Assembly: GCA_003252535.1 (NCBI GenBank)
Contig: QKDN01000046.1
Coordinates: forward strand, 27,183-91,182
From: Campylobacterota bacterium
Lineage (GTDB): Bacteria > Campylobacterota > Campylobacteria > Campylobacterales > Sulfurovaceae
DNA: 64,000 bases
Reading direction: 5' to 3'
The notes under the pieces were generated by a model. The model saw nothing but the letters and a program-made list of their open reading frames with translations, was not told where the DNA came from and did not search any database. Shown in pieces: positions 6,173-56,499 of the stretch. Numbering within the stretch: the stretch's first letter is position 1; each line of letters begins with the position of its first letter. The position numbers were made by a program, and so were the translations under genes.

Positions 6173-6177
6173 TCATA

Positions 6178-7260
6178 TCAGCTTTGGGGATAGAGGGCTT
6201 TGAGGTGATCCATCTTCCTGCCCATATTGAGCAGTACCATATCGGCGAGGACTAGCGCCATCATCGACTCGCAGACAATGCTGCCGCGTATCGCGACGCA
6301 GGGGTCGTGCCGCCCCTTGAGGAAGTAGGTCTGATCGTTGTTGTGGACATCGACCGTCTTCTGCTCGATGAAGATCGACGGAGTAGGCTTGAAATAGACT
6401 TTGGTGATGATATCGTCGCCGTTGCTGATCCCGCCGAGTATCCCCCCGGCGTGGTTGCTCTCGAACCCTTTCGAGGTGATCTGGTCATTGTTACGGCTCC
6501 CTTTGCTGCGGCTGGCAGCCACACCGTCGCCAATCTCGACAGCTTTGACCGCGTTGAGCCCCATCATCGCATCGGCTATGGCACCGTCGAGCTTGCGGTA
6601 CATCGGCTCTCCCAGTCCTGCGGGTGCTCCCGTGACCCTGATATAGGCTGCACCGCCGACCGAATCGTGGGCATTGAGCGCCTGTTCCACGGCTTCTTTC
6701 TGCGCCTCCTCCACCGATGGATCGAGGGCGAATATCTGGCTCTGCTTCGCATGTTCGAAGTCGAGGTTCTCACCGGCATGGATACCGTCTATCTCGACGA
6801 TGCCGCTCATCACCCCTATCCCCAGCTCTCTGAGCATCAGTTTGGCGATCGCTCCCGCCGCTACCCTCGCTGCCGTTTCGCGCGCCGAGCTCCTGCCGCC
6901 GCCGCGGTAGTCCCTGATCCCGTACTTGTGGAAGTAGGTGTAGTCGGCATGGCCCGGGCGGAAGAGGTCCTTGACATTGGAGTAGTCCTTGCTCTTCTGG
7001 TTCTCGTTGTAGATCACCATCGCTATTGGAGTCCCGGTGGTTTTCCCCTCGAAGACCCCCGAGAGGATCTCGACGGTGTCGCTCTCCTTGCGCTGTGTTT
7101 CGAACTTGCTCTTGCCAGGTTTGCGGCGGTCAAGCTCGCTCTGGATGAAGGCTTCGTCGATCTCCAGTCCTGCCGGGACGCCGTCTACGACACACCCGAG
7201 CGCTTTGCCGTGGGACTCTCCGAATGTCGTGAATGCAAATCTCTCTCCGAACCTGTTCAT
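6178..7260 (-). CDS. aroC: chorismate synthase
   Basis: 360 aa, [31 protein letters not shown] conserved AroC N-terminus. Confidence 0.92.
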
Positions 7261-20906: not shown

Positions 20907-23900
20907 TTATGCCCTCGCCTTCACTTCGGTATAGAAGTTGTTCTTTTTTGTAGTCTTGAGCGTCTCTGCCGAGATCGCGTTCATCTCTTTGATCGTCTTT
21001 ATCAGCTCCATATTTTGCGACACCATAGAGCTCATCGACTTCTGCATATCCTGAAAGCTTCGCGTAGATACACGATCGACAGCAGTTGCCAGCTGCGGCG
21101 CCAACAGTCCGAATGACTGCTTGATATCCTGGGAGCCGGAGACGGATGCTTTTGCCGCTGTACTTGCAAGCTGCTGGGCAGTAGACGCAGATGATCTGCG
21201 CGTCCCGGTAGAGGCATTTGCAACCGTGCTCGCCAGTAGAGCCGCTGATTCAGTAATATATTTTTTGTCAGACTCTGATATTTTTTTCCCGGTGTTGGGC
21301 TGGGTGCCACCGCCCTCCCTGGCGATCAGTGCATCTATCATTTTGATCGCCGATGCGTTCACACTCTCGTCGATCTTGAGCAGCGTGGCGTCTATATTCT
21401 CGAGCAGCGCCTGCTCGGGAGGTGTTGCTATCCCCTGTATGTCAGCATTGGCTTTGGTGATCATAGAGATGAATTCCGCTTCGTTCCTAGCCGAGCTCTG
21501 CGCCTTTTCTGCAAAGTTCTGATAGGCGCCGGATACCCCTGCATAGTCACCGTTGTTGATCGCTTGCGACAGGAGTGTTTGGGACTGCGCCACCGTCCCG
21601 ATCGTGTACGAGCGCAGCGTCTCCATAGATGACTCTTTGGCCGAGAGTATGGATTCGCGCAGTGCGTTCGAGGCCTCTATCTCGGCGTTGATCCCGTCGA
21701 TCCTGGTCTGCTCTAGCTCTTTGAGCCTGTCCTTTTCTGCATTCGCCCAGGTATCTATCTGGGAGAGAACATCTTCTGATGCGACGCCCGATCTGATATT
21801 CTTCTGGATACCCGATGCAGTGATTTTGGCCGGCGTCGTATAGGCTGCCTTCGCATCGAGCAGCGTCTGCATAGCCGCCGCCCTCTCGTCTGCGAGCTGT
21901 TGCTCGTTGTCCATGAGCTGCTGCTGCATATCATAGAGTTCTGCGAACTGCGGAGAGAGTTCAAGGAGCTTGTCCTTGAGGGTCTCACCTGTCTTGCCGG
22001 TGAAGCTGAGCGAATCTACCAGATTTTTGAATTCTTCTTTTGTCTGTGGCATAGTGAGCCCAAGTGCATTCATGCTGTTCTGCAAATCTCCGGCAAGCAT
22101 GGAGGCCTGCTCCTCCGTGGAGTAGAAGCTACCTATAAAGCTATCAAGTGCTGCTTGTCTCGTGTCGTTGAGCTGCTGCTCCATATCATAGAGTTCTACG
22201 AACTGCGGAGAGAGTTCAAGGAGCTTGTCCTTGAGGGTCTCTCCCGCTGCTCCGCTGAGACCGAGCGAGTCTGCCAGTTTATTGAATTCTTCTTTCGTCT
22301 TTGGTGTCATCGTGTCTGCGTTTCCACTGAAGCTGAGCGAATCTACCAGATTTTTGAATTCTTCTTTTGTCTGTGGCATAGTGAGCCCAAGTGCATTCAT
22401 GCTGTTTTGCAAATCTCCGGCAAGCATGGAGGCCTGCTCCTCCGTGGAGTAGAAGCTGGAGATGTAGCTGTCCAATGCTGATTGCCTCTTATCCGCGAGC
22501 TGCTGCTCCATGTCGATCATCTTGGCATACTCCGGGGAGAGTGCTATGAGTTCGCCATAGAGCTTGGCACTCTCCTCGTCCGTTACTTTGAATCCCTGGA
22601 TCAGATCGGCAAAACCTTCGGCTGTGTCGGGGAGCTTGATACCAAGAGTCTTGGCCGAGCTTTCCAGGTTGTTTTTGACGATGTTGTACTGTTCCTGGTC
22701 CGAGAGGAAGTTTTGCTGGAATGACTGCATGGCAGACGAGAATGCATCCTGACCACCGGCAGCTTCTACCACATCGAGGGTGGCCTCCTGCGCAGAATAT
22801 ATCTTGCCCCATCCTTTGCCGAAGCTTGCCATTGATGATGCCATTTGTACAGCCATAGAGGAAGCAGCATCCATATCCCCGTTCTGAATAGCTGCTGACA
22901 TGCTCTTAGCCATAGTAGACATGGAGTTGCCGGTCTTATGTGACTTGACTATATTGTCGCCTATGATGACGCCGATATCCTCCAGCTGTGCTGAAGACTG
23001 CTCGTATGTGACCGCCAGACGCCCAAGCGTCTCCAGACCATCCTCCCCTGCCTTGCCGTATTTATCTACCCAGCGGTCGATTTCACCTACGCCGCCAAGT
23101 ACCCCAGAGAAATACTCGCTATACGCCGCCTCTATACGTTTTGATGCCTCTTCTGGCGACAACCCCTCAAGGTCTATCTTGCCGATCTCGACCTCGACCT
23201 TCTTGAGCGCATCTTCGTATTGACCGAGCCCGAGCGTCCCGATCGCCTCGAAGATGAAATCATAACCCTCCTGGAACGCCTCTGTGAAATATGACTGCTG
23301 TTCAGCAGTGAGGTCGATGACGGTATCTTTTGTGTACTGCTTCGTCGACAGCCCGAAATATTTTTTCTTCGTGATGATCTCTGTCGTATACCCCTGTACT
23401 ACGCCATCCATGAAGGTATCGTAGCTTGAAGCCCCCATGATCACTCCGGTGCTGAGCATCTCCCGGGAAGTCGAGCTCCAGATGCCTCCTGATTGCGACG
23501 GCTTGTAGTCAGCCCCCGTCAGGTCGACCCCTGCCGATCCGGCTACGGAAATGGCTTTCCCTATGAGAACGAAGTTCTTGTCCATTGAGGCGAGATACTT
23601 CGTCATCTGGTAGGTAGATTCGAGCAGCGGGTCCTGTGCACTCTCGAATATCCCTTTCAGATTTGCCAGTGACTCGTCTGAGAAGTCCGTGCGCCCTTTG
23701 GCTGCTTCTTTTTCTGCATCGGTGAGGGTATCGGTGAGGGATGACGACAGAAATGAAAGTCCTACCCCGATGGCCATTGCAAAGACATTACCGCTCATCC
23801 CCCCCAGGCTATTGAGCCCGGAGCTTAAGGTGGATGCAAGCGACTCCGAGAGGTTGTTGACTATCGGTTTGACGAGCTCTGAGGAGACTCCATCGACAAA

Positions 23901-25859
23901 ACCTTTGAACGCACCGGAGAAGTCCCCTTTGAAAACACCCCCCAGCAGCCCTTTGAACTCGTCGGTGAAGTCGAGTGCGCCGCCATGGTGTTTCTTCCAC
24001 ATTGCGTCATTGGCTTTAGCGACATCTTCAGCGGTCATTTTCCCGGCAGCCCTGAGCTTCTCGAATTCTTTCTTCGCCTCTGCTGCGTCAAGCTCGAAGA
24101 GTTTTTCCTTCTGTCCTGTCAGCTCCAGGAATTTGCGGTAGGATGATTCCAGGTCTTTGGTGGATGAGGCTGCATTCTTCACGCCTGATGCGTGTTCTTT
24201 TGCCGCATTGACCCCTTTTTTCCCGCTTTCATCAGCCTTTTTCCCCATATCTTCGGTCGCTTTTGACAGCTCTTTGGTAGATGCGGTTTCTTTGGCAGTT
24301 TCCTTTGTTACCTTGCCTGTACCCGAAGCAATCTTTTTCCATGTATCTGCTATCGCATCTGCTGTGGTAGCCTGAGTCTTGTATGCTTCGTTAAGTGATG
24401 CATTTGTGCTTCCCGTATCGATGAGCTTTTTGGTAGATTTCGTTGCAGCTTCGATAGATGATTCGTACGAGCCTATAGATATAACGATAGGCTTGAATGG
24501 GTTTTCCTTTCCCGCTAACGCAAATACATTGTCAAAACCAGAAGAAAACGAATTGATAAACTCCGATACAACCCTGAGCAATCCATTGATCATAGCATAG
24601 AAACCCTCGCCGATAGCATCTACTACAAACTTGAAAGTGTTCTGCATAGATACAGTCAGAGAGTTCCATCCATCGCCTATTACATTGATTCCATCTTCAA
24701 TACCCAGTACTACTTCGTAGAAGCCAACGCGCAAGGTTGCTCCCATGTTCAGGAATCCAAGCCCGGCAAGCTGTGCAGTAGAACCGACATGAACCCCTAG
24801 TGCTGCTATGAGATCAAGAACCCCATTGACCTCGTCTTTGATTTGCAGAAAGTCCAGTGCGCCACCCAAGGCATCACTGATACCTTCACCCACGACAACT
24901 ATTGCTTGAGGAAGATATGAAAAAGTGTCGTATATATCCCCGGCCATCGTGACGAAAGTACCGGTTACGGATTGTCCGATACTGGCTGCTTCTGGTCCGA
25001 GGTCATTGAGTATGCGGGTGAGCTCTTTCGCCCCATCTTTCTGCGCGTCGAATATCGGCTGTGTGATCTTCCCGGCGAACATATCCCATGTCGTGCTGAG
25101 GTTGGACATGGCGTAGGCGTATGTATCCTGCTCGGTACCGGTCTCGCTGAGTTTCTCTTTGAGGAACGCTACTTTGTCCCCGGCGGCAGCGTAGGATTCT
25201 TTGGTGACGCCAAGTGTCTGCATCATCTTGCCGAAACCGCTGTTGGCATCCCATGTGCCGTCCGCCATATCGTTGATCCCGGCTGAGAGATCATCGGTCG
25301 AGAGGTTCAGGTTGGATGCGCTGTTGGTGACGAGCTTGAGTATATCCGCCTGATCCTTGAGCGCCCAGTTGTTGCGCTCCATCCCCGGTTTGGCGAGGGC
25401 ATAGATATCGACGAGCTCGCTCATCCCCCTGCCGGTCTTTGTGCTGGTCTTCTCGAGGAGTGACATCATCGCCGCCACTTCGCCGGATACGAGCTTCTGC
25501 CGCTCCATCGCCGTGACCTGTTGCCCTGTTGTGAGCGTCAACCCTTTGGATGCCAATACGATCGCTGTCAACTTTGCCTTGCTAGCGTCCATGGTCTTGT
25601 TGTATTCAAGACCGCTATGCATGACAAAATCGAATGCCTGTTTGAGCGATATGATCTTTCCGACACTCGAGCCCAGATCGCTGATGGTGTTTTTGATACG
25701 GCCGATGGCAGAGGATGTCTGCGCAGCCTCGGTTTTGAGACTGTCGAACTGTGTCAAGACGACACTTATATCCCCTGTCCTGGCATCGACCGAGAGGACG
25801 ATCTCAAGATTCTGTTGCATTTGCCTGTACCCCCCGCTCGATGGTTTTGATATTTTCAA
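20907..25859 (-). CDS. phage tail length tape measure protein
   Basis: 1650 aa, largely alpha-helical/low complexity, internal tandem repeats (MPQTKEEFKNLVDSLSF...LKDKLLELSPQF.ELYDM), directly downstream of G/GT chaperone pair; possible alternative start at MQQNLEIV (25820). Confidence 0.85.
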   Translation of the reverse strand: MKISKPSSGGYRQMQQNLEIVLSVDARTGDISVVLTQFDSLKTEAAQTSSAIGRIKNTISDLGSSVGKIISLKQAFDFVMHSGLEYNKTMDASKAKLTAIVLASKGLTLTTGQQVTAMERQKLVSGEVAAMMSLLEKTSTKTGRGMSELVDIYALAKPGMERNNWALKDQADILKLVTNSASNLNLSTDDLSAGINDMADGTWDANSGFGKMMQTLGVTKESYAAAGDKVAFLKEKLSETGTEQDTYAYAMSNLSTTWDMFAGKITQPIFDAQKDGAKELTRILNDLGPEAASIGQSVTGTFVTMAGDIYDTFSYLPQAIVVVGEGISDALGGALDFLQIKDEVNGVLDLIAALGVHVGSTAQLAGLGFLNMGATLRVGFYEVVLGIEDGINVIGDGWNSLTVSMQNTFKFVVDAIGEGFYAMINGLLRVVSEFINSFSSGFDNVFALAGKENPFKPIVISIGSYESSIEAATKSTKKLIDTGSTNASLNEAYKTQATTADAIADTWKKIASGTGKVTKETAKETASTKELSKATEDMGKKADESGKKGVNAAKEHASGVKNAASSTKDLESSYRKFLELTGQKEKLFELDAAEAKKEFEKLRAAGKMTAEDVAKANDAMWKKHHGGALDFTDEFKGLLGGVFKGDFSGAFKGFVDGVSSELVKPIVNNLSESLASTLSSGLNSLGGMSGNVFAMAIGVGLSFLSSSLTDTLTDAEKEAAKGRTDFSDESLANLKGIFESAQDPLLESTYQMTKYLASMDKNFVLIGKAISVAGSAGVDLTGADYKPSQSGGIWSSTSREMLSTGVIMGASSYDTFMDGVVQGYTTEIITKKKYFGLSTKQYTKDTVIDLTAEQQSYFTEAFQEGYDFIFEAIGTLGLGQYEDALKKVEVEIGKIDLEGLSPEEASKRIEAAYSEYFSGVLGGVGEIDRWVDKYGKAGEDGLETLGRLAVTYEQSSAQLEDIGVIIGDNIVKSHKTGNSMSTMAKSMSAAIQNGDMDAASSMAVQMASSMASFGKGWGKIYSAQEATLDVVEAAGGQDAFSSAMQSFQQNFLSDQEQYNIVKNNLESSAKTLGIKLPDTAEGFADLIQGFKVTDEESAKLYGELIALSPEYAKMIDMEQQLADKRQSALDSYISSFYSTEEQASMLAGDLQNSMNALGLTMPQTKEEFKNLVDSLSFSGNADTMTPKTKEEFNKLADSLGLSGAAGETLKDKLLELSPQFVELYDMEQQLNDTRQAALDSFIGSFYSTEEQASMLAGDLQNSMNALGLTMPQTKEEFKNLVDSLSFTGKTGETLKDKLLELSPQFAELYDMQQQLMDNEQQLADERAAAMQTLLDAKAAYTTPAKITASGIQKNIRSGVASEDVLSQIDTWANAEKDRLKELEQTRIDGINAEIEASNALRESILSAKESSMETLRSYTIGTVAQSQTLLSQAINNGDYAGVSGAYQNFAEKAQSSARNEAEFISMITKANADIQGIATPPEQALLENIDATLLKIDESVNASAIKMIDALIAREGGGTQPNTGKKISESDKKYITESAALLASTVANASTGTRRSSASTAQQLASTAAKASVSGSQDIKQSFGLLAPQLATAVDRVSTRSFQDMQKSMSSMVSQNMELIKTIKEMNAISAETLKTTKKNNFYTEVKARA

Positions 25860-34507: not shown

Positions 34508-36433
34508 CTACGCGCTGCTTTTAACGCTCTTCTTTGCCATCTCCCATATCTCCGGGTTGGCAGCCGCCAGCGCCCTGTCCTTGTCGTCTATAGTCCCCTC
34601 GCCGAGCTTCCTGACAAAGCGCTCGAGCAGCGAGGCATACTTGACCACCCCTTTGGCTCTTTTCGTACGCTCCTCATCCTGCATCTCCTGCCGCTCTTCA
34701 TCTCTCTCCTCACTCCTTGCCTCCTCATTTTCGCTGCTGTGTACACCGGCGATGATCCTGTCGTACTCTTCGCCCCGTTTCTCCGCCTCTCTGACCGCTT
34801 TGTTGGCTTTGGAGGCGAGGCGGTTGTAGGCGCTGCGAGCCTCTTTGATGATGCTCCGCTTCGCTTCGTCGCTCACTGCCGGATCGCTTGCGGTACAGAT
34901 GAATTTGCCATTCTCCGGGTCGTACACGGCGACGCTGTGCATATCGTCTGGCTCGATCACCCTCACCCTGCGGCCGATCCACTCGACCAATGCGGTCTCC
35001 CAGTAGATGTTCCTGATGCCGTCTGTGGTGATGACGATCCCCTCCTTGGTGACGGTGCGTACTCTCGATACCCCCATCATCAGATCGAGGGAGCGCTCAC
35101 TCGCCACCCGTCTCGTATGGTGGCCGCTCCACCGCTCGGCCGGGCTCATCCCCAGCGAAGAGTGGCGGCGGTGCTCGTACTTCTCCACCCACTGCTCCAG
35201 AGCTTCCCGGAGCTCGTCGGAGGAGATGGGGATATCGACGAACATATCGGCCTCTCCCCGCCGCAGGATCGCCCTGGCGAACCCGCTCTCGCTCCACTGC
35301 TTCTCCTTCCATCTCGCTATCGCCTCCCGCCGCTTCTCGAAGCTCTTGGACGATCGCAGCGCCTGCGCCTCGGCTACATTGTGCCCGACGAAGCCGCGCA
35401 GCGTACGGAAGAGGTCGCGTGTCAGCGTCCCGAAGAACCGCTCGATATGCGGCTTCATCTCCCCGCTGTACGGGGGAACCTCCCTCTTGCCGATCCCCAT
35501 CGCCAGGCAGATATCCTCGATGTGGTTGCTCGTATAATCCCTGCCGTTGTCGACGATCAGCAGCTCGGGCAGTCCCATCTTGAGGATGGCCCCGCGCAGG
35601 TTGCGGCTCACGGCGTAGCTGCTCGTGCTCTTCTCCATCGAGACGAACACACGGCGGCTGTAGACATCGATCGCCCCGTAGATCGTCCACCGCATCCCGT
35701 CGCTCGTCATCACATCCGCAGGGGTGGCGTCGAGCTCCCAGGCGGCATTGGGGTACCGGTAGGCCTCCGATGCGCTGCCTATGGCGGGTTTGTACTGCCC
35801 CTTTGCGCGGTCGGGGTTGGTGGCGTGATCCCAGAGGTGGCGGTTGGCCTGCTTCCATGCCGCTGCCCACCGCTCCACGGTACGCTGCGACGGTGCGTCG
35901 GGGTAGACCTGCCGCAGCCGCTCACAGATGCTGCTCATGAGCGGATGGATGTCGCGGCGGAGCAGCTCGGATCGGACGAACTCCTGCATCGCCTCCGTCA
36001 TCACCGTAGAGCCTTTCGGTCTGCCGCGCCCGTCACGGAGCGCCTCCACGACGCTCTCCCCTCTGGCGTAGGCTCCCTTGTAGAGGCGTATCCACCGCCT
36101 GAGACTCTGCTCGCTCACCCTCGCATCCCCCAGCTCTTCGACGAACCGGCGCAGGCTCCCCGAGCGCCGCAGTGCCATCTGCACCACGGTCACCCGGTGA
36201 TCGTCCCCCATCGATGGCTTGCGCTCGGGTACCGATGTCGCCTTCGGCTCGACCCATATCTCGTAGACCGTACCGCCGTTGCCGCCGACCCCGTCGCGTT
36301 CGCGGTAGAGGTAGCGTGTCGAGCCGCGCTTGCAGGCAGCCTGTATGGCTCGCGAGCTCACACCGTAGACGATGGCCGCTTCGGTGGTGCTCACCCACAT
36401 TGGAGCCCCTCCCAGGGGAGTGAGCCGATCCAC
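34508..36433 (-). CDS. Mu-type DDE transposase (MuA-like)
   Basis: 641 aa; N-terminal HTH, rve core with D (WELDATP), D (IVDNGRDY), E (PHIERFF); acidic C-terminal tail; alternative start at MWVSTTE. Confidence 0.85.
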   Translation of the reverse strand: MDRLTPLGGAPMWVSTTEAAIVYGVSSRAIQAACKRGSTRYLYRERDGVGGNGGTVYEIWVEPKATSVPERKPSMGDDHRVTVVQMALRRSGSLRRFVEELGDARVSEQSLRRWIRLYKGAYARGESVVEALRDGRGRPKGSTVMTEAMQEFVRSELLRRDIHPLMSSICERLRQVYPDAPSQRTVERWAAAWKQANRHLWDHATNPDRAKGQYKPAIGSASEAYRYPNAAWELDATPADVMTSDGMRWTIYGAIDVYSRRVFVSMEKSTSSYAVSRNLRGAILKMGLPELLIVDNGRDYTSNHIEDICLAMGIGKREVPPYSGEMKPHIERFFGTLTRDLFRTLRGFVGHNVAEAQALRSSKSFEKRREAIARWKEKQWSESGFARAILRRGEADMFVDIPISSDELREALEQWVEKYEHRRHSSLGMSPAERWSGHHTRRVASERSLDLMMGVSRVRTVTKEGIVITTDGIRNIYWETALVEWIGRRVRVIEPDDMHSVAVYDPENGKFICTASDPAVSDEAKRSIIKEARSAYNRLASKANKAVREAEKRGEEYDRIIAGVHSSENEEARSEERDEERQEMQDEERTKRAKGVVKYASLLERFVRKLGEGTIDDKDRALAAANPEIWEMAKKSVKSSA

Positions 36434-38967: not shown

Positions 38968-41900
38968 CTACTCTACCTTTTTCGAGAATTTCAGGTAGAG
39001 GATCGGGAGGATGATCAGCGTCAGGAGGGTGGAGCTGATGAGCCCGTTGATGACGACGATCGCGAGCGGTCGCTGTATCTCTGATCCCGGCCCCGTGGCG
39101 AAGAGGAGTGGGAGGAGACCGAAGGCGGCGATGGTGGCAGTCATGAGGACGGGACGGAGCCGTTTGACCGCCCCTTCCACTACTGTCTTTCTCAGATCAT
39201 ACCCCTGGAGGATGAGGTGATTGAAGTAGTTGATGAGGACGACCCCGTTGAGCACCGCGATACCCAGAAGGGCGATAAACCCGACCGATGCAGGTACCGA
39301 GAGGTACTCGCCGCTGAGGTAGAGTCCTGCGAAGCCCCCGATGAGAGCCAGCGGGACATTGATGAGTACCATCGCCGCCTGTCTGAGCGAACCGAACGAG
39401 ATAAAGAGGAGGATAAACACCAAAAAGAGGGCGAGCGGTACGATCACCATCAGACGGGCAGCCGCACGCTGCTGGTTCTCAAACTCACCGCCGTAGGTGA
39501 GGTAATACCCTGCGGGGAGTTTGACATCCTTCTCTATCTTCTCCTTGACCTCTTCGACGAAGCTCACGAGGTCGCGCCCTTCGACATTGGACTGGACGAT
39601 GGTCTTGCGGTAGCCGTTCTCGTGCGCGATCTGTACCGGCCCTGCGTTCGGGGTGAACCTGACGAAGTTGCTCAGAGGTACCGAAGTACCGTCATCGAGC
39701 GGGTAGTAGAGCTGCGAGAGTTTCTCCAGGGAGTTCTGGATGGCGCCGTCCCCCTTGATCATGAGGCTGATACGGCGCATCCCCTCCTGGACTATCCCCG
39801 CCTCTACGCCGGTGACCATTGCCTTGAGGTAGTCGTTGATCTGCTGCTGGGTGATGCCGTAGTAGGACATCTGCTTCTTGTCGAAGCTCAGCTCGAAGTA
39901 GGAGACCCCTTCGTTGGCTTTCTTGTAGACATCGCTGCTCCCTTTGATCCCTTCGAGGGTCGTTTTGATCTTCTGGGCGATCTCTTCGAGCTTGTCGTTG
40001 TCGCTGCCGAAGATACCGATCGCCAGGTCGCCGCGGACACCCGTGAGCATCTCCGAGACTCTCATCTCGATAGGCTGGGTGAAGCCGTACTCTATCCCGA
40101 CGAAATCATCGAGCACCTTCCGTATCTCTTCGATGACGAAATCCTTGGAGGGCTGGCGCCACTTATCCTTGGGCTGGAGGACGAGGAAGGTATCGGTGTC
40201 GTTGAGTCCCATCGGATCGAGTCCGAGCTCGTCGCTCCCTGTCCTGGCGACGATCTTCTTGATCTCGGGGACGGAGGCGAGGAGCTTCTGCTGCACTTTG
40301 AGGTTGAGGTTCTTACTCTCATCCAGCGAGATGGACGGGAGCATCTCGACCCCGATGATGATACTCCCTTCGTCCATCGTCGGCATGAAGGTTTTCCCCG
40401 TCTTGTAGGCGAGGAAGAGGGAGAGGAGGAAGATCACCACGACCGATGCCAGCACCTGCTTCGAGTACTTGAGGCTCAGTTCGAGGGCAGGTTTGTAGAT
40501 ATTGACGAGTTTGTGGACGAGCCATGACTCCTTGTCGGGTCTCTTGGAGAGGATGAAGGAGCTGAGCACAGGGATGAGGGTCAGCGCGAGTACTAGCGAG
40601 CTGAAGAGGGCGAAGACGATACTCAGTGCCACAGGCTTGAAGAGTTTCCCCTCCAGCCCCTCGAGCGAGAGGAGCGGCATGAAGACGATGATGATGATCA
40701 GTACCCCGGTGACGATGGAGGGAGCCATCTCGATAGCGGCGTTGTAGATGATATGGAGCTTGTTGGTCTCGCTGTGCTTGGGTTCCCCCAGCTCTGCCGT
40801 GATATGCTCGACCATGACGACCGCGGAGTCCACGAGGATACCGATGGCGATCGCCAGACCACCGAGACTCATGAGGTTCGCGCTCAGACCGAAATACTGC
40901 ATCGCTATGAAGCTCATCATCAGCGCGAAGGGGAGGATCAGCGCGACGCTCAGCGCCGAGGCGATATTGCCCAGCATCACGAGGAGGATCACGAGGATCA
41001 GGATCACCGCTTCGACCAGCGCTTTCTTGACCGTATGGGTGGCGAGATCGACGAGCTCGGAGCGGTCGTAGAAGATATCGATCTTCGCGCCGTCGGGGAG
41101 GATCGCCTGGAGCTCTGCTATCTGGGCTTTGACCTTTTCGAGTACCTTGGCGGTGTTGGCGCCTTTGAGACCCAGTACGAGACCCTCTACCGCTTCACCT
41201 TGGCCGTTCTTGCTGACGAAACCGGCTCGGGTGAGGTGGCCTATCTCCACCCTGGCGATCTGGTCGACGGTGATCACCTTGTTGTCCTTCTTGATCACCG
41301 GGAGGGCTGCGATCTCATCGAGGTTCCTGAGTTTCCCTACGCTTCGCACGAGGATACTCTCGACACCCTGCGAGACGCGGCCGGTACCGTCGTTCTGGTT
41401 GTTCTCTTCGAGGGCTTTCATGAGCTGGTCGAGGGTGATCCCCATCGTGCGCATCCTGTCGAGATCGGGGGTGACCTGGTAGGTCTTCACCTCGCCGCCG
41501 AGGGCATTGACCTCAGCGACACCTGCTACGGAGCGGATCTTCGGCGCGATGATCCAGTCGAGCAGCGATCGTTTCTCCTGGAGGGAGAGGGTATCCGACT
41601 CGATGGTGAACATCAGGATATCGCTCAGCGGCGTCGAGATGGGGGCGAGTCCCCCTTCGATATTGGACGGGAGGGAGCCTTTGGTATCATTGAGCCGTTC
41701 GGTCACCTGCTGTCTCGCCCAGTAGATATCTGTGCCGTCCTCGAAGTCGATGGTGATATCGCACAGACCGTACTTGGAAGTAGAGCGCATGATCGTCGCA
41801 TGGGGGATACCCACCATACCCATCTCGATAGGGATCGTGATACGGGACTCGATCTCTTCGGGGGTCATACCGTTTGATTTGATGATCATCTTCACCTGGG

Positions 41901-42030
41901 TGGGGGAGATATCGGGGAAGGCGTCGATGGGGAGTTCATTGTACGACTTGACCCCAAACCCCAGTATCACCACGGCCAAAAGGGAGAAGAAGAGCCTCTG
42001 GGCGAGTGCGAATCCTATGAGCTTATTCAT
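38968..42030 (-). CDS. heavy-metal efflux RND transporter (CusA/CzcA family)
   Basis: 1020 aa, 12-TM RND topology, HME-type conserved N-terminus. Confidence 0.85.
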   Translation of the reverse strand: MNKLIGFALAQRLFFSLLAVVILGFGVKSYNELPIDAFPDISPTQVKMIIKSNGMTPEEIESRITIPIEMGMVGIPHATIMRSTSKYGLCDITIDFEDGTDIYWARQQVTERLNDTKGSLPSNIEGGLAPISTPLSDILMFTIESDTLSLQEKRSLLDWIIAPKIRSVAGVAEVNALGGEVKTYQVTPDLDRMRTMGITLDQLMKALEENNQNDGTGRVSQGVESILVRSVGKLRNLDEIAALPVIKKDNKVITVDQIARVEIGHLTRAGFVSKNGQGEAVEGLVLGLKGANTAKVLEKVKAQIAELQAILPDGAKIDIFYDRSELVDLATHTVKKALVEAVILILVILLVMLGNIASALSVALILPFALMMSFIAMQYFGLSANLMSLGGLAIAIGILVDSAVVMVEHITAELGEPKHSETNKLHIIYNAAIEMAPSIVTGVLIIIIVFMPLLSLEGLEGKLFKPVALSIVFALFSSLVLALTLIPVLSSFILSKRPDKESWLVHKLVNIYKPALELSLKYSKQVLASVVVIFLLSLFLAYKTGKTFMPTMDEGSIIIGVEMLPSISLDESKNLNLKVQQKLLASVPEIKKIVARTGSDELGLDPMGLNDTDTFLVLQPKDKWRQPSKDFVIEEIRKVLDDFVGIEYGFTQPIEMRVSEMLTGVRGDLAIGIFGSDNDKLEEIAQKIKTTLEGIKGSSDVYKKANEGVSYFELSFDKKQMSYYGITQQQINDYLKAMVTGVEAGIVQEGMRRISLMIKGDGAIQNSLEKLSQLYYPLDDGTSVPLSNFVRFTPNAGPVQIAHENGYRKTIVQSNVEGRDLVSFVEEVKEKIEKDVKLPAGYYLTYGGEFENQQRAAARLMVIVPLALFLVFILLFISFGSLRQAAMVLINVPLALIGGFAGLYLSGEYLSVPASVGFIALLGIAVLNGVVLINYFNHLILQGYDLRKTVVEGAVKRLRPVLMTATIAAFGLLPLLFATGPGSEIQRPLAIVVINGLISSTLLTLIILPILYLKFSKKVE

Positions 42031-43111
42031 CGCTCTCTCCGAGGAGGTTCTTGAGCACCGCTACTGATGTGGTCGCGATCTCATGATCGAGCTCCGGGGA
42101 ATGGGCGACATAGTAGTAGCCGGTCTCTTCGCCGATGATCTTCACAGTGTAGGAGTCGAACCCTTCGCCGTTCTTGATGAAGACGATCGGTTTCCCTTTG
42201 TGATAGATCAGAGAGGTCTTGTCGATCATCAGCGCGTCGGCGTTGAGGTTGATCGAAGCTGTGGCACGGTAGCCCGAGAGGAGCGCGATGTCCTTGGGGA
42301 CGAGTATCCTCACATGGCGCGTCTGGTTGACCGGGTTGACGGTGGGAGAGAGCTGGAGGATGGTGGTATCGAAGCTTTGCTGCGCAAGGAGGATATTGAC
42401 CACCTGTCCCTCTTTGAGATTGACGAGCCTTGAGGCTTCGATATCGGTCTCGAGCCAGAGCTCACCCTCTTTCTTGATGATGAAGAGGGCTTCGGAGGAT
42501 GGGGTGGTCTTGCCCGGTGAGGCGGTGAGGGCGATCACACGGCCGTCGACCGTGCTGACGATGGGGATGGTGGGGGAGAGGATGAGGTCGCGCAGGAGCG
42601 TATCGATCATCTCATCGCCCGCGCCGTAGCTGTGGAGGAGCGCTTTGGAGGCTTCGATCCTGATCTTGTCGGCCTCGAGCTCGGCGTTGGCCGCTTCACA
42701 CTCTTTTTTGGGGATGATGTTCTCGTTGCACAGGAGCATCTTGCGCTTGGAGGCGTTGGTGTGGTGGCGCAGTTCGATCGCCTCGGAGATCGCTTTCTGC
42801 TGCGCTTCGATCCACTCCGTACCGCTCACTTCGGCGAGTACCTGCCCCGCTTTGACCTCTTCATAGTTGGCTATGAAGAGCTTTTTGACATTGGCATCAT
42901 AGGGGAGGGAGATCGTGGTGAGGAGCGATGGAGGGGTCGCAACCTCGAAGATGAACTCTCCGAGCGGGAGCGTCTGCACCGGCGTAGGGGTCTGGGTCTT
43001 GATCTGCCAGTTGGTGCGCTGCTGTTCGCTGAGGGTGATCTGGGCTGCATCGAGCGATCCTGCCAGCAGAAGGATGAGCGATAATGGTTTGATGAGTGAT
43101 GGGCGCTTCAT
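42023..43111 (-). CDS. RND efflux periplasmic adaptor (CusB/CzcB-like)
   Basis: 362 aa, signal peptide, membrane-fusion-protein architecture, overlaps cusA-like start. Confidence 0.75.
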   Translation of the reverse strand: MKRPSLIKPLSLILLLAGSLDAAQITLSEQQRTNWQIKTQTPTPVQTLPLGEFIFEVATPPSLLTTISLPYDANVKKLFIANYEEVKAGQVLAEVSGTEWIEAQQKAISEAIELRHHTNASKRKMLLCNENIIPKKECEAANAELEADKIRIEASKALLHSYGAGDEMIDTLLRDLILSPTIPIVSTVDGRVIALTASPGKTTPSSEALFIIKKEGELWLETDIEASRLVNLKEGQVVNILLAQQSFDTTILQLSPTVNPVNQTRHVRILVPKDIALLSGYRATASINLNADALMIDKTSLIYHKGKPIVFIKNGEGFDSYTVKIIGEETGYYYVAHSPELDHEIATTSVAVLKNLLGESDE

Positions 43112-43113
43112 GA

Positions 43114-44298
43114 TTAGTCCTTTTTTTCTATGAGCGAGTAGAGTGTGAAGAGCGACTGGTAGTACTCTTTCTGAGTTGCATAGAGCTGTTGTCTGAGTTC
43201 ATAATATTTCTGTCTGTTGAGCAGGTACTCGATCACCGAGCTCTCGCCGAGATCGTAGCTTTTCTTGATCAGCGGCAGCAGCTGGGTGCGGTACTCCTCG
43301 ATATTAGTCCTGATCGCATCGATCATCTGCGCCTTGGTGCGGAGGTCGTCGCGGATATTCTTGATCTGGCTTCTCTTCTGGTGGATCGTCTCTTCGTACT
43401 TGTAGGTCGCCGCCCGTTCGTTGTGCATTGCGGCTAGGCGTTCCTCCTCGGAGCGTCTGGAGGTGAAGTTGAGCGGGATGGAGACCCCTACGGTGTACCG
43501 ATCCATATCGATCTCCTTGTCGCGGGAGAGGGTGAGGTTGACGGAGTCTATAGGGGCGCTGTGGCGGCTGATGGCCGTCCTGGCGCTGTCGACCCGTTTT
43601 TTGTACGCTTCGGTCGTGAGGGTGAACTGACCCATCGGCAGTCTGACATCCGCAGTGATGGGGTAGGTGTCACGGCAGGAGAGAGTAGCATTTTCGTTCA
43701 GGCGCACCTGTGATAGGAGATAGCGTCGGGAGTTCTCCTTTGCCATCCGGCTCGCTCCCAGCTGTGCGAGGAGCTGCTTCTTCTCGATGGAGAGCTGCAA
43801 GAGTTCGGTTCTCGATATCTCCTGGTACTCGTATGCCTTCTCCTTGTTTTTGTACAATGTCTCGAGATCGTTATAGTTCTGGAGGAGACTCTGGTACTCC
43901 CTGGCGTCGATACAGTGCTGGTGGTAGATGTTCTTGATCGCCTGGGTATAGGTGAGGAGCTGGGAGCTCTCTTCGAGGATATCGGCTTCGTTGTTGAGCC
44001 TGTTGATACGGCGCTCTTTGTCTATGATGGAGCCGAACTTGATGTTCTTGGCAATCCCTACGGAGCTCTCGTATTTTTTCGGAGCATTGAGGGGCATCGC
44101 CTTGGCTCCGTTCATGAAGAGCTCGATAGGATCGGAAGAGGTGTCGGCTCTGTTCTTCGCTTCGAGGGCGAGGCTCTTCTGATCGAGCGAATTGGTAAGT
44201 CTGTTGTATTTCTTGCTTGCCGCTATTACTTTGTCGAGCGTGACGGTCTGCGCTGCGAGCAGACCGGTGAGCAGCGCGGCGATCATAAGGTATCGCAT
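43114..44298 (-). CDS. outer-membrane efflux protein (TolC/CusC family)
   Basis: 394 aa, signal peptide, two coiled-coil repeats. Confidence 0.7.
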   Translation of the reverse strand: MRYLMIAALLTGLLAAQTVTLDKVIAASKKYNRLTNSLDQKSLALEAKNRADTSSDPIELFMNGAKAMPLNAPKKYESSVGIAKNIKFGSIIDKERRINRLNNEADILEESSQLLTYTQAIKNIYHQHCIDAREYQSLLQNYNDLETLYKNKEKAYEYQEISRTELLQLSIEKKQLLAQLGASRMAKENSRRYLLSQVRLNENATLSCRDTYPITADVRLPMGQFTLTTEAYKKRVDSARTAISRHSAPIDSVNLTLSRDKEIDMDRYTVGVSIPLNFTSRRSEEERLAAMHNERAATYKYEETIHQKRSQIKNIRDDLRTKAQMIDAIRTNIEEYRTQLLPLIKKSYDLGESSVIEYLLNRQKYYELRQQLYATQKEYYQSLFTLYSLIEKKD

Positions 44299-52640: not shown

Positions 52641-53336
52641 ATGAATATGGCTCTATATGACAGAGATTATACTCAGAACGAATCGGTTTCTTATGTTCAG
52701 GAAGGTGCCAGCGTCGCCTTCATGAAGAGGACATACCAGCTGTTAGGCGCGAGCATGATCGCTGCCGCAGCAGGTGCGTATGCCACTATGCCTTACGCTC
52801 AGACTGTACTTGAGTACAAATGGTTCATCTTCGGCTTCGAGCTTTTCATGCTCTTCGTCGGTCTTGGAATGACAAGAAACAAACCGGGTCTCAACCTCGC
52901 GGCACTTTTTGTCTTTACCTTCACTACCGGTGTATCGCTTGTACCTCTTTTGGCAAGACTCATCGGTGCGGGCAACGGCGGCGTGATCGGTAATGCGTTC
53001 CTGATGACCGCAGTACTTTTCGGCGCCCTCAGCCTCTTCGCTATCAACAGCAGAAGCGACTTCTCAAGCTGGGGCAAACCGCTCTTTATCACCCTTATCG
53101 TGATCATCGTTGCTTCACTGGTCAATATGTTCATCCTTCAGAGTCCGATGATGCATGTGATCATTACGGCAGGCGTATTGCTCCTCTTCAGTCTCTTCAC
53201 GATCTACGATACGCAGAATATCGCCAACGGTGCGTACGATTCAGAAGTCGATGCGGCAGTATCGCTCTATCTTGACTTTCTTAATATGTTCACTTCGATC
53301 CTCCAGCTTCTTGGAATCTTCGGCAATGACGATTGA
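52641..53336 (+). CDS. Bax inhibitor-1/YccA family membrane protein
   Basis: 231 aa, 7 TM, conserved BI-1 C-terminal pattern. Confidence 0.8.
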   Translation: MNMALYDRDYTQNESVSYVQEGASVAFMKRTYQLLGASMIAAAAGAYATMPYAQTVLEYKWFIFGFELFMLFVGLGMTRNKPGLNLAALFVFTFTTGVSLVPLLARLIGAGNGGVIGNAFLMTAVLFGALSLFAINSRSDFSSWGKPLFITLIVIIVASLVNMFILQSPMMHVIITAGVLLLFSLFTIYDTQNIANGAYDSEVDAAVSLYLDFLNMFTSILQLLGIFGNDD

Positions 53337-53742
53337 TCATGCCAATGACGGTTTGGAGCGGCTCATCGATGCCAATCTGAACCGCCTTGGCGAAGGGATA
53401 CGCGTCATCGAGGATGTATGCAGATACATCTACGATGATACGACCCTCACCCCCCGTCTCAAGTCCATCCGCCACGATCTCCAAAAAGCCCACGATCCCA
53501 GACGACTCATCCACAGAGATATCCAGAACGATATCCTCAAATCATCCACCCCAAGCGAACTCCAGAGAACATCCCTCACCGATATGATGCTCGCGAACTT
53601 CTCCCGTGCAGAGGAATCAGCCAGAGTGCTCGAAGAGAGCTTCAAACTCATCGATGTTGGGCTTGCAGAACTCTTCAAACATATCCGCTATGAGCTCTAT
53701 GACCTCGAGAAGATTTTTTTTGAGGCGCATACTCCTCGCTAA
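53326..53742 (+). CDS. hypothetical protein
   Basis: Start at MTIDHANDG; 138 aa. Confidence 0.4.
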   Translation: MTIDHANDGLERLIDANLNRLGEGIRVIEDVCRYIYDDTTLTPRLKSIRHDLQKAHDPRRLIHRDIQNDILKSSTPSELQRTSLTDMMLANFSRAEESARVLEESFKLIDVGLAELFKHIRYELYDLEKIFFEAHTPR

Positions 53743-53873
53743 GAAAATCATATCAAGGCTACTTTATCGAAGTATTGATTTTGGATTTTTTTTAGTTATA
53801 ATCTACCTGTTTTAAATAGTACCTATTCCTGATTCTCGAGGCGGATTTCAATGATTTTTTTCATAGAGTATGC

Positions 53874-54953
53874 ATGTTAGAAAAACTGATGGCGTTCATT
53901 GAGCATAAAGGTATGCTTCAAGAAAAACATCCGCTTCGTTATCTTCTCTGGGAACCTACTTTGCGTTGCAATCTGGAGTGTCTCCATTGCAGCAATGAAT
54001 GCACCACTGAAAATACCTCAAGACTCAATGAACTGACTACAGAAGAGATCAAGAATGAACTCTCTTCGATAGCGATGCACTATGATCCCAAAGAGATCAC
54101 CTTCGTCGTCACGGGGGGAGAACCTCTGATGCGTCACGACCTGACCGAAGTGGGTGCGTTCGCCAGCTCTCTCGGCTACCAATGGAGTATCACCACCAAT
54201 GGTCTGCTGCTCAATAAAAATACTATCCGATCGTTAAAAGAAGCACATCTCGGGAGTATAGCCGTCAGTCTCGACGGGATAGAAGAGCATCACGACAAGC
54301 TCAGAAACTCTCAGGGAGCCTACCGTCGCACCGTAGAGAACATTCGCAGATTCCTTGCATCAGATAACCCTGCCACATTGAGTATACTGTGCTGTGTGAG
54401 CAGTATCAATGTCCATCATTTGGGAGAATTTGTCAAAGAATTGATGGATATTGGGGTCAGGAGAGTGCGCTTTGGCCCCATATATGGAGCTGGTAGAGCC
54501 CAGGGCGAGTTGATGCTCAGTGATGAAGAGCTGTTAAAACTCCTCGTTTTTATCAGGGAGGAGCGGGTCCGTCAGCGTAACAGAATCGATATTTCACTCA
54601 GCGATGACGGTTACTATGGCGCGGAGTTTGAGTGTCATGTGCGGAGAAATCTTCATTACTGCGGTGCAGGTATAGAGTGGGGAGCGATACTCTATGACGG
54701 ATGTGTGTCGGGATCGACCAACATATCGAGGAAATATAACGAAGGAAATATAAGAAATGACTCTTTCGTAGATATCTGGGAGAACAGATTTGACCGTTAC
54801 CGCAGAGGAAGGGAAACTCTTTTCGCCCCTTATTGTGCAGATTGTGAGGAGTGGATACTGTGTGAAGGTGGAGGGTTTCATCTATTGGATCAATATCTAA
54901 ATGGAACGCAGGAATGTGGTTACAAAAAAATAAGGAGTGCATATGGAAGATAA
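53874..54953 (+). CDS. radical SAM enzyme with C-terminal SPASM/twitch domain
   Basis: 359 aa; CNLECLHC (Cx3Cx2C) near N-terminus; C-terminal Cys-rich region. Confidence 0.8.
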   Translation: MLEKLMAFIEHKGMLQEKHPLRYLLWEPTLRCNLECLHCSNECTTENTSRLNELTTEEIKNELSSIAMHYDPKEITFVVTGGEPLMRHDLTEVGAFASSLGYQWSITTNGLLLNKNTIRSLKEAHLGSIAVSLDGIEEHHDKLRNSQGAYRRTVENIRRFLASDNPATLSILCCVSSINVHHLGEFVKELMDIGVRRVRFGPIYGAGRAQGELMLSDEELLKLLVFIREERVRQRNRIDISLSDDGYYGAEFECHVRRNLHYCGAGIEWGAILYDGCVSGSTNISRKYNEGNIRNDSFVDIWENRFDRYRRGRETLFAPYCADCEEWILCEGGGFHLLDQYLNGTQECGYKKIRSAYGR

Positions 54954-55689
54954 AAAAGGTATGGATAGACGGGTATTTCTGGAGAAATTCGCGAAGATCA
55001 GCACGGCGGCGATCACCATAGGGGTATGTACAGCGTGTCCGGGGACACCTCCAGATTATTTTGGTGTCTTTATCGATGTGTACGATATTGACGGGAGAAG
55101 CTATCTTGATTGGGAAATTACACAGCTTCCTAAACAGCCCAAATTTGTTTTGAGATTTTCACATCCCGTCCTTCCGGATGTAGAAAAACTGGTGGATATT
55201 GCCGATGCAAATTCCAATACGATACCATGTCAAAAATCCTGGCAGAATGAGAGTGATCTGGAGATCACATTCCCCGATGATCCACTCAACTATGGCAGTC
55301 GCTATATACTCAATATCTCCGATGATATCAAGGATAAGAACGGTATGACGATAGACGGATACCTACAACACTATATCTTTGATATCACACATATCAAGCT
55401 TTCAAGCGAAACGATTACCTTGGCTCCCAATGAAGAGGTGAAGGTTGAGATTGAAGCGTTGTATATCGATGATATGATACTTGTCGAGTACGACGGAGTC
55501 TTCGTAGAAAAGCTCTCCAATGATTATTATGAAGAAAATGGCGAAGCCGATGTGACCGTAGAGGGGCAAACAGTGATCGTAAAAGGGCTTAAAGAAGGAA
55601 AAATGATGTTCGGTGTATATATCCTCTATAACGGCAATGAGAACAAACCAAAGACATATCAGACACAAATGTATGTCGAGATTTCCTAG
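54937..55689 (+). CDS. Tat-signal exported protein
   Basis: 250 aa; DRRVFLEKF twin-arginine motif, Cys pair CTACPG after signal; overlaps rSAM gene end. Confidence 0.5.
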   Translation: MHMEDKKGMDRRVFLEKFAKISTAAITIGVCTACPGTPPDYFGVFIDVYDIDGRSYLDWEITQLPKQPKFVLRFSHPVLPDVEKLVDIADANSNTIPCQKSWQNESDLEITFPDDPLNYGSRYILNISDDIKDKNGMTIDGYLQHYIFDITHIKLSSETITLAPNEEVKVEIEALYIDDMILVEYDGVFVEKLSNDYYEENGEADVTVEGQTVIVKGLKEGKMMFGVYILYNGNENKPKTYQTQMYVEIS

Positions 55690-55884
55690 AACACTGGTTC
55701 GTCTCGATCGTCCCCGATGTGTGCACGGGGGTTGTTCGCTTGTATAGGAACCGAAAGCTTTAGCTTCGCCTTTTCTGATGGGTAGAACAGCCGTTTTTGT
55801 CCTATAGTGGTTTCTCCACAAACATCATATACCAAATTAAGACTAAATTTAATACAATTGGACAATAAAACAAAAGGGAGTATC

Positions 55885-56157
55885 ATGCATCTGAGTCAGG
55901 ATATCAAGCCCATTTCCTATCTGAAAGCAAAAACGGCAGAAGCGGTGAGCAGGGTGACAGATACCCAGCGCGCGATGATCATCACGCAAAACGGTGAAGC
56001 CAAGGCGGTGATACAGGATATAAGGAGCTATGAAGAGCTGCAAAACAATCTTGCGATGTTAAAGATGATCATCAAAAGCGAACGGCAGATACGCGAGGGG
56101 AAGGTCACCGCACAGGAAGATGTGTTTGAAAAAATGGAAAAAAAATACTTCGGCTAA
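55885..56157 (+). CDS. type II antitoxin, Phd/YefM family
   Basis: 90 aa from MHLSQDIKPISYLKAKTAEAV; 3-nt gap to toxin gene. Confidence 0.7.
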   Translation: MHLSQDIKPISYLKAKTAEAVSRVTDTQRAMIITQNGEAKAVIQDIRSYEELQNNLAMLKMIIKSERQIREGKVTAQEDVFEKMEKKYFG

Positions 56158-56160
56158 TCG

Positions 56161-56499
56161 ATGCAGACATATACGGTACTCTGGACGGACGACGCTCTCA
56201 AAGATTTTGACCGTATCATCGGGCATATCTCCAATGAGAACAGAACCAATGCCGCAAATATCTATCAGGAGATGAAAAATCAGGCTATATCACTGGAACA
56301 GTTCCCGCTGAGAGGAAGGGTAGTACCTGAGCTGGAGGCATTGGGTTTTACCCATTATAGAGAACTTCTCTTCAAGCGATGGCGTATCATCTATACAGTA
56401 GACGGAACGACAGTGTATATATTGCTGTTATTGGATGGCAGGCAAAATCTCGAGGATCAACTGATCTACAAGATATTGCATAGCGGTCAGATGGAATAG
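56161..56499 (+). CDS. type II toxin, ParE/RelE family
   Basis: 112 aa; ParE-like pattern (FPLRGRVVPEL...WRIIY). Confidence 0.7.
   Translation: MQTYTVLWTDDALKDFDRIIGHISNENRTNAANIYQEMKNQAISLEQFPLRGRVVPELEALGFTHYRELLFKRWRIIYTVDGTTVYILLLLDGRQNLEDQLIYKILHSGQME

Follow-up and report, generated by a model that had tools for sequence, protein, structure and literature searches.

We analysed a stretch of 64,000 nucleotides (nt), hereafter the window, from a Campylobacterota bacterium affiliated with the Sulfurovaceae (assembly GCA_003252535.1, contig QKDN01000046.1, positions 27,183 to 91,182). In the window a gene encoding a radical S-adenosylmethionine (SAM)/SPASM enzyme (53874-54953) overlaps the gene of a partner protein (54943-55689). 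The two genes probably form a cassette in which the cytoplasmic SPASM enzyme modifies a motif near the signal peptide of its partner before the latter is exported by the twin-arginine translocation (Tat) system, the lipid anchor probably being C32. Judging from the sequence comparisons described below, the pair belongs to a derived subclade of a family that is widespread and unnamed, and in which X-Y-G-P-P-P rather than cysteine would be the usual target. The original prediction, made from the sequence of the window, had suggested that the two genes may be an uncharacterised maturase-substrate pair. Their co-conservation agrees with this view, but the pair does not stand alone, as it belongs to the widespread family with X-Y-G-P-P-P partners.

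Conservation of the gene pair

More than 600 homologues of the enzyme were detected at E<=1e-20. The best 120 listed share 45-65% identity along their entire length, and their sources include Chloroflexota, Nitrospirota, Calditrichota, Alpha-, Beta- and “Delta”-proteobacteria. A locus scan with one genome per species yielded 26 loci, one of which (L004) was excluded as it ends 35 nt past the enzyme gene. Co-occurrence across genomes had been named beforehand as the test on which the predicted pair might fail. In all 25 informative loci, which represent five phyla, the enzyme gene (its product being 45-53% identical to the window enzyme) is adjoined by one to four partner genes bearing a common N-terminal cassette. 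The partner genes are usually located directly downstream, with start and stop codons mostly overlapping or 3-4 nt apart. Starting from the partner side, six distinct metagenomic loci were found in which the partner gene (P0122, P0125, P0127, P0135, P0143, P0156) overlaps an upstream radical SAM/SPASM gene.

No further gene family was found to be conserved around the pair across the loci. An apparent third conserved gene cluster was rejected because it traced back to open reading frames (ORFs) antisense to the enzyme gene in genomes of high GC content, linked to an unrelated N-terminal fragment in L003. Furthermore, all six reading frames of the 64-kb window and of about 220 kb of related loci were screened for a composite pattern combining the Tat-like motif with YG, PGP or GxPP. 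The pattern matched solely genes adjoining the radical SAM gene, with the partner gene as its one match in the window. The occurrence of the cassette pattern beside the enzyme gene is not due to chance.

The N-terminal cassette

In the main clade of the family the cassette of the partners starts with [ST]-R-R-x-F-L-x-x-[FY]-A followed by a hydrophobic stretch. A canonical lipobox cysteine (e.g. LSGC, LTGC, TLAC) is present in about two thirds of the main-clade partners and absent from about one third. The cassette then carries at least one copy of [V/L/A/M/E]-Y-G-[P/A/V]-x-P, most commonly V-Y-G-P-P-P. The core X-Y-G, with X mostly Val or Leu, was detected in each of the 43 main-clade partners and is often repeated.

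The arginine pair is degraded in a few Burkholderiales and alphaproteobacterial loci, while F-L-x-x-[FYW]-A and Y-G-P-P are kept. Two Burkholderiales partners (L017, about 5080-6325; L018, about 5090-5850) carry D-P-F-L-K-K-Y-A and G-K-F-L-L-R-Y-A, having lost the twin arginines and retained F-L-x-x-Y-A together with V-V-Y-G-P-P. Since these partners keep F-L-x-x-Y-A without the twin arginines, their sequences hint at selection on the cassette helix beyond Tat targeting.

The cassette is the sole part common to all partners, the bodies being unrelated. A Big_5 immunoglobulin-like (Ig-like) domain occurs in Nitrospirota and Campylobacterota, and an unrecognised domain of about 200 amino acids (aa) in Calditrichota, where four tandem paralogues are found. 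Roseiarcus and Bradyrhizobium possess proline-rich Y-G-P-P-P repeats without cysteine. In Alphaproteobacteria the body is of the OmpA/Pal type (136.6 bits versus the Pal_lipo cutoff of 125.35), often in two or three tandem paralogues.

Such tandem Pal-like lipoproteins with OmpA domains adjoin the enzyme gene in Magnetospirillum, Terasakiella and others (L007, 5082-6430; L010, 5082-6090; L027, 1206-2240). Each of these alphaproteobacterial partners has a Tat signal and V-Y-G-[PA]-P-P, and one exceeds the Pal_lipo cutoff. In a Calditrichota metagenome-assembled genome (L013, 2288-5460) four tandem cassette-bearing paralogues of about 250 aa follow the enzyme gene.

The gene pair of the window

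The following features were assigned to the pair.

53874..54953 (+): radical SAM/SPASM enzyme gene, 359 aa (ORF, Pfam and TIGRFAM matches, AlphaFold2 model)
53967..53990 (+): codons of C32-N-L-E-C36-L-H-C39 (C-x3-C-x2-C), the radical SAM [4Fe-4S] site (read from the sequence)
54633..54917 (+): SPASM region, C254 to C348 (Pfam, alignments A1 and A3)
54932..54937 (+): Shine-Dalgarno sequence AAGGAG of the partner gene, within the 3' end of the enzyme gene and 5 nt before ATG 54943 (read from the sequence)
54943..55689 (+): partner gene, 248 aa, with Tat-type signal, cysteine motif and two Ig-like domains (ORF, Pfam, alignment A2, AlphaFold2 model)
54964..54990 (+): twin-arginine motif D8-R-R-V-F-L-E-K-F16, predicted helix of residues 9-19 (sequence, AlphaFold2 model)
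55027..55053 (+): C29-T-A-C32-P-G-T-P-P (C-V-[AS]-C-[PT]-x-P-G-P in the subclade), the proposed site of modification and of lipobox-like cleavage (partner alignment, low-confidence model region)
55066..55386 (+): Ig-like beta-sandwich domain 1, weak Big_5 match of 26 bits (Pfam, AlphaFold2 model)
55393..55683 (+): Ig-like beta-sandwich domain 2, the relative P0127 matching Big_2 (AlphaFold2 model, structure comparison)
53775..53802 (+): promoter-like site TTGATT-16 nt-TATAAT about 70 nt 5' of the enzyme gene (consensus scan, 10 of 12 positions matching; weak evidence)

The enzyme starts at Met6 (354 aa, 53889) in the public NCBI and JGI gene calls versus Met1 (359 aa, 53874) in the Logan call, and the longer form is plausible as relatives align from Leu5. 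The partner ORF as listed begins at GTG 54937 and comprises 250 aa, the length given in the original prediction, whereas public gene calls give 248 aa. Considering these calls and the AAGGAG sequence, the shorter form starting at ATG 54943 is likely. With this start and the enzyme stop codon at 54951-54953 the predicted overlap of the two genes persists, and it therefore amounts to 11 nt, not 17.

The enzyme has the C-x3-C-x2-C motif that was predicted for it and a putative SPASM domain, predicted as well. C32, C36 and C39 are invariant in the enzyme alignments A1 and A3, and the match to PF04055 (Radical_SAM; 74.7 bits versus a cutoff of 29.5) places it in the radical SAM superfamily. PF13186 (SPASM) is matched barely above its cutoff (21.9 versus 21.5 bits). 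Thirteen cysteine positions are conserved in the enzyme family, and C32, C36, C39, C43, C173, C174, C263, C321, C324, C330 and C348 as well as the GGEP motif, which is intact in the window enzyme, are invariant in A1. C43, a fourth cysteine after the radical SAM site, is present in at least 90% of the family and absent from P0006 in A3. With respect to the canonical seven-cysteine SPASM pattern (C-x9-15-G-x4-C ... C-x2-C-x5-C-x3-C ... C), the window enzyme keeps C263-x12-G276, C321-x2-C324-x5-C330 and C348. The cysteine of G-x4-C is replaced by Ser281, the x3-C position after C330 is Gly throughout the family, and C277 is unique to the window.

A sequence search against solved structures revealed no close match for the enzyme. 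The closest solved folds to its AlphaFold2 model (mean predicted local distance difference test score, pLDDT, 79.7) are those of SkfB, SuiB, PqqE and anSMEcpe, with template modelling (TM) scores of about 0.65; going by the model, its structural neighbours are peptide- or protein-modifying SPASM/twitch enzymes.

The partner protein begins with M-E-D-K-K-G-M-D-R-R-V-F-L-E-K-F-A-K-I-S-T-A-A-I-T-I-G-V-C-T-A-C-P-G-T-P-P-D-Y-F-G. Residues R9, R10, F12, L13 and F16 are invariant in the partner alignment A2. The twin-arginine signal proposed originally was recovered, since the motif is followed by an uncharged stretch of 19 residues, in line with the Tat consensus [ST]-R-R-x-F-L-K and its uncharged h-region. 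As hidden Markov models (HMMs) of Tat signals remained silent, the assignment is based on this motif together with the consensus S-R-R-x-F-L-x-x-F-A found among the relatives. The cysteine pair, which had been placed just behind the signal, is present as well, but C29-T-A-C32 straddles the predicted cleavage site, and C32 is preceded by lipobox-like residues (Ala at -1, Thr at -2). Because the pair lies in this lipobox-like site, the partner is probably a Tat-dependent lipoprotein with its lipid anchor at C32.

According to the AlphaFold2 model of the partner (pLDDT 83.8), the helix of residues 9-19 is followed by a low-confidence disordered stretch (21-34) and two beta-sandwiches (42-148 and 151-247). 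Its closest solved folds are Ig domains of S-layer proteins, L,D-transpeptidases and filamin, and no enzyme-like fold was found in the structure comparison. The sequence NYG at residues 116-118 (Y117) was rejected as a splice site since it lies in a beta-strand of an Ig domain and the YG is not conserved.

Family assignment of the enzyme

The sole strong NCBIfam match of the window enzyme was TIGR04133 (rSAM_w_lipo) with 296 bits, below the curated cutoff of 425. The alignment covers the full length (residues 6-350 on model positions 8-346 of 350), and the second-best family reached 127 bits. Five relatives scored 286-309 bits, likewise under the cutoff. Public annotations read “radical SAM protein” or “putative PqqE” and nothing more.

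A cofactor-biosynthesis identity (NirJ, AhbC/D, PqqE, MoaA) was rejected, all scores being far under the respective cutoffs. The NirJ/Ahb models gave 105-120 bits versus cutoffs of 500-650. Matches to AhbC, NirJ1, NirJ and MoaA were confined to the N-terminal radical SAM half, while NirJ2 and PqqE covered nearly the whole protein. The original prediction, which had named a cofactor-biosynthesis class as a finding that would speak against it, is consistent with these scores. TIGR04103, which we take to be the PlpX (splicease) family, the paper on PlpX giving only IPR026482, matched the window enzyme with 96.8 bits (cutoff 725). Across the window enzyme and its relatives its full-length matches ranged from 97 to 106 bits, no higher than those of the NirJ2, mycofactocin or GDL-motif maturase models. 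A QhpD-type model was not among the 25 best of the 84 families matched by the window enzyme, no test directed at QhpD having been made.

The enzyme had been grouped with maturases such as anSME and QhpD, which for anSME the family models contradict. The sulfatase maturase model TIGR03942 is outside the 25 best families of the window enzyme, and the relative P0094 scored 75 bits with it versus a cutoff of 349. It therefore seems highly improbable that the enzyme acts in the manner of anSME and turns C32 (or C29) of the exported partner into formylglycine by oxidation, although the size and the architecture without a recognition domain resemble anSME, anSMEcpe is a full-length structural neighbour of the enzyme model (TM 0.65-0.67) and the partner motif has a cysteine followed by proline. 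As stated originally, this motif (C-P-G-T-P) is not the sulfatase motif C-x-P-x-R, and the body is a tandem-Ig protein, not a sulfatase. In addition, main-clade partners carry Tyr-Gly and in some cases lack any cysteine, and C32, if lipidated, could not be converted into formylglycine too.

The subclade of the window and co-variation of enzyme and partner

The window partner is nearly an orphan, since a word-indexed search returned only the protein itself. Exhaustive and profile searches detected the relatives P0122-P0126, P0135, P0142, P0143, P0155 and P0156 with 22-37% identity. The subclade partners carry G-[VI]-C-V-[AS]-C-[PT]-x-P-G-P in place of X-Y-G-P-P-P, corresponding to C-T-A-C-P-G-T-P-P in the window. 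An N-terminal X-Y-G was not found in the window partner or in the ten known relatives.

The subclade enzymes (the window enzyme, P0003-P0007, L033 and also L034), which are 50-65% identical over the full length, lack the second cysteine of the SPASM element C-x12-G-x4-C, G-C-P-S being replaced by G-[SA]-T-[NH] in alignment A3. Wherever the partner of an enzyme without this cysteine is known (the window, P0005, P0007, L033, L034, L036), it is of the C-V-A-C-P type. The cysteine is kept by all main-clade enzymes and by that of L031, and every enzyme keeping it pairs with X-Y-G partners. The partner of L031 (P0127) shares the two-Ig body of the window partner, but its motif is C-V-Y-G-P-P. This distribution looks like enzyme-substrate co-variation within the subclade, and a joint change of enzyme and motif is what would be expected under direct recognition.

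The missing auxiliary-cluster ligand might alternatively indicate that the subclade enzyme is a decaying or repurposed relic whose partner has lost the original target. The G-x4-C cysteine is gone in all subclade members, and P0006 is also devoid of C43. However, GGEP is kept, as are the cysteines of the radical SAM site and nine more, the identity among the subclade enzymes extends over the full length, the overlapping gene order is preserved and a new, well-conserved partner motif has arisen in the subclade. Decay or repurposing thus appears very unlikely.

In L034 (1838-8790) and likewise in L035-L037 the pair is located inside a tight operon on the same strand. The other products of this operon are two more Tat-lipoprotein tandem-Ig paralogues, a lipoprotein of 435 aa containing the metalloprotease motif HELAH, a secreted protein of 356 aa and a membrane protease of the Rce1-like (CPBP) type.

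Proposed mechanism

We infer from the sequence comparisons that the partner is the substrate of the enzyme. A cytoplasmic enzyme of about 360 aa that, like anSME, has no domain dedicated to peptide recognition would use its iron-sulfur clusters, SAM and a reductant to modify a short motif immediately following the signal peptide in the product of the overlapping downstream gene. The signal helix (R-R-x-F-L-x-x-F-A) may also aid the binding of the partner to the enzyme. The modification would precede export, after which the folded partner would leave via Tat, probably anchored to a lipid at C32 and carrying its two Ig-like domains. Tat exports folded proteins post-translationally and thus leaves time for maturation in the cytoplasm. 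Only the disordered stretch that follows the signal offers a conserved candidate site for the modification. We therefore interpret the enzyme as a probable maturase with the partner as its substrate.

Regarding the chemistry, the invariance of X-Y-G suggests a tyrosine-directed reaction in the main clade, for which splicease-like tyramine excision would be the closest precedent. In the splicease reaction the substrate loses tyramine, corresponding to about 135.06 Da. For the subclade of the window our best guess, with low confidence in the exact chemistry, is a reaction centred on Cys or Pro, for instance C-beta oxidation or the formation of a thioether crosslink. The idea that the family has a Cys-Tyr crosslink in common was rejected, since the distance between Cys and Tyr ranges from 1 to 33 residues and cysteine is missing from several partners. 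In CteB a cysteine of the substrate binds the auxiliary cluster. By analogy, the substrate cysteine might ligate the depleted auxiliary cluster in the window's subclade.

It seems unlikely that the enzyme represents a new type of tyramine-excising splicease. Spliceases are radical SAM/SPASM enzymes of two-gene systems that target X-Y-G and in which the leader helix of the substrate binds and activates the enzyme (PMC11414181, PMC10849128, PMC9811515). The X-Y-G of all 43 main-clade partners fits this description, and TIGR04103 is among several full-length peptide-maturase matches of similar score. However, neither the window partner nor any of its ten known relatives in the subclade has an N-terminal X-Y-G, and, judging splicease likeness by the family model, TIGR04103 does not exceed the NirJ2, mycofactocin and GDL-motif maturase models and is far under its cutoff.

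Several observations weigh against the maturation of the partner before Tat export. The Tat-signal models PF10518 and TIGR01409 did not match the window partner, and its relatives reached 17-20 bits on the Tat-signal model, under the threshold of 22.7. The lipobox of C32 is non-canonical compared with [LVI][ASTVI][GAS]-C, having Cys at -3. The marginal SPASM score and the missing auxiliary-cluster ligand could mean that the subclade enzyme is impaired. The co-variation amounts to a single evolutionary split. The 3-kb contig encoding P0129, a partner-like protein, shows no radical SAM gene, the sole case of this kind. L034-L037 encode two additional Tat-lipoprotein tandem-Ig paralogues without the Cys/Pro motif, and for this reason Tat targeting may be a trait of the lipoprotein family and not a consequence of modification.

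If enzyme and motif function together as proposed, the switch of target and the loss of the cluster cysteine would imply either that the chemistry is new or that the substrate provides a ligand to the cluster. As both changed together, the subclade can be regarded as a natural experiment. The presence of one cassette on unrelated envelope proteins, Pal-like ones included, always beside its own enzyme, would point to a general chemical marking before Tat export. If the X-Y-G of the main clade is spliced, reactive alpha-ketoamides would arise in bacterial lipoproteins. We put forward, as a tentative and rather doubtful extension, a widespread modification system in which dedicated SPASM enzymes alter the N-terminal tether of Tat-exported proteins and lipoproteins, including Pal paralogues, ahead of their export, and in which the lineage of the window would have switched from Tyr-Gly to Cys-x-x-Cys-Pro and given up an auxiliary-cluster cysteine.

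Genomic context

The GC content at third codon positions (GC3) of the pair is 0.46-0.48 versus 0.74-0.82 in housekeeping genes of the window. Both genes are part of a compositionally atypical block (52641-56499) comprising genes for Bax1-I (GC3 0.60), ThiD2 (0.60), the radical SAM enzyme (0.475), the partner (0.46), Phd (0.59) and ParE (0.53), while the flanking murE-like, recQ, SPFH and recA genes range from 0.74 to 0.82. The Phd/YefM antitoxin (PF02604) and the ParE toxin (PF05016) are encoded directly 3' of the partner gene and in the same orientation (55885-56499). The low GC3 of the pair next to this likewise low-GC3 module suggests horizontal acquisition, and the block is probably an acquired islet.

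Its position beside a toxin-antitoxin module in such a block would also be consistent with an enzyme that leaves the partner untouched, the two genes being neighbours through a shared envelope process or through joint travel on a mobile islet. We regard this as quite improbable, since the adjacency is preserved over five phyla in otherwise unrelated neighbourhoods, the cassette alone is conserved while the partner bodies are exchanged, and enzyme and motif changed jointly.

Elsewhere in the window a Mu-type transposase (rve and Mu-transpos_C; 34508-36433, minus strand) was detected within the stretch of highest GC content (30-36 kb, GC 0.59-0.61, negative GC skew), a region that may belong to a mobile element. 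An ORF of 1650 aa (20907-25859, minus strand) had no Pfam match at E<=1e-5 and adjoins the gene of an 869-aa RCC1-repeat protein (14603-17212). A resistance-nodulation-division (RND) efflux operon (38968-44298, minus strand) encodes an AcrB-type pump (960 bits), an HlyD-type adaptor and an outer-membrane factor.

Comparison with known systems

A literature search for TIGR04133/TIGR04134 and for SPASM in combination with twin-arginine or lipoprotein retrieved no account in which a Tat lipoprotein is the partner of a SPASM enzyme. To our knowledge, SPASM enzymes acting on whole exported proteins rather than on small peptides are few, the known examples being anSME and QhpD. QhpD forms thioether crosslinks in QhpC of the quinohemoprotein amine dehydrogenase. 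It resembles the window enzyme in its proposed role in being a SPASM enzyme that modifies cysteines of a protein bound for the periplasm, but differs in that no QhpD-type model was among the 25 best-matching families and that the partner lacks QhpC-like features. With anSME the window enzyme shares the structural neighbourhood and the proposed mode of action, i.e. a SPASM enzyme of about 360-370 aa without a recognition domain that modifies a full-length exported protein in the cytoplasm. It differs from anSME in the HMM score far under the cutoff and in a partner that is no sulfatase and carries C-P-G-T-P instead of C/S-x-P-x-R.

The spliceases (PlpX, PcpX, RhaX) are likewise radical SAM/SPASM enzymes encoded beside the substrate gene and target X-Y-G, as presumed for the main clade, and an N-terminal helix of the substrate likely touches the enzyme in both systems. 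In contrast, the similarity is distant (about 100 bits to TIGR04103), the putative substrates in the present family are exported proteins or lipoproteins with Tat signals and not leader-core peptides, and the window partner has no N-terminal X-Y-G. Scott et al. reportedly surveyed YG-rich neighbours of rSAM-SPASM genes in 2022, a survey that may already include the main clade. A paper citing it (Scott et al. 2022) mentions 27 characterised and 939 predicted splicease systems. Spliceases are able to act on whole proteins (PMC11414181, PMC10533398).

The window partner had no match to TIGR04134 at E<=10, and neither had ten relatives at E<=0.1. We take TIGR04134 to be a lipoprotein family paired with TIGR04133 in Bacteroidota. 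Closest to the present system is TIGR04133 itself, the only strong full-length match, which embodies the same concept of a SPASM enzyme beside a lipoprotein gene; its family name shows that the pairing “radical SAM with lipoprotein” had already been noted by its curators. The family described here differs from it in that every member tested scored under the cutoff, that the hosts are Campylobacterota, Nitrospirota, Pseudomonadota and others, and that the partners combine a Tat signal with X-Y-G-P-P-P or C-V-A-C-P.

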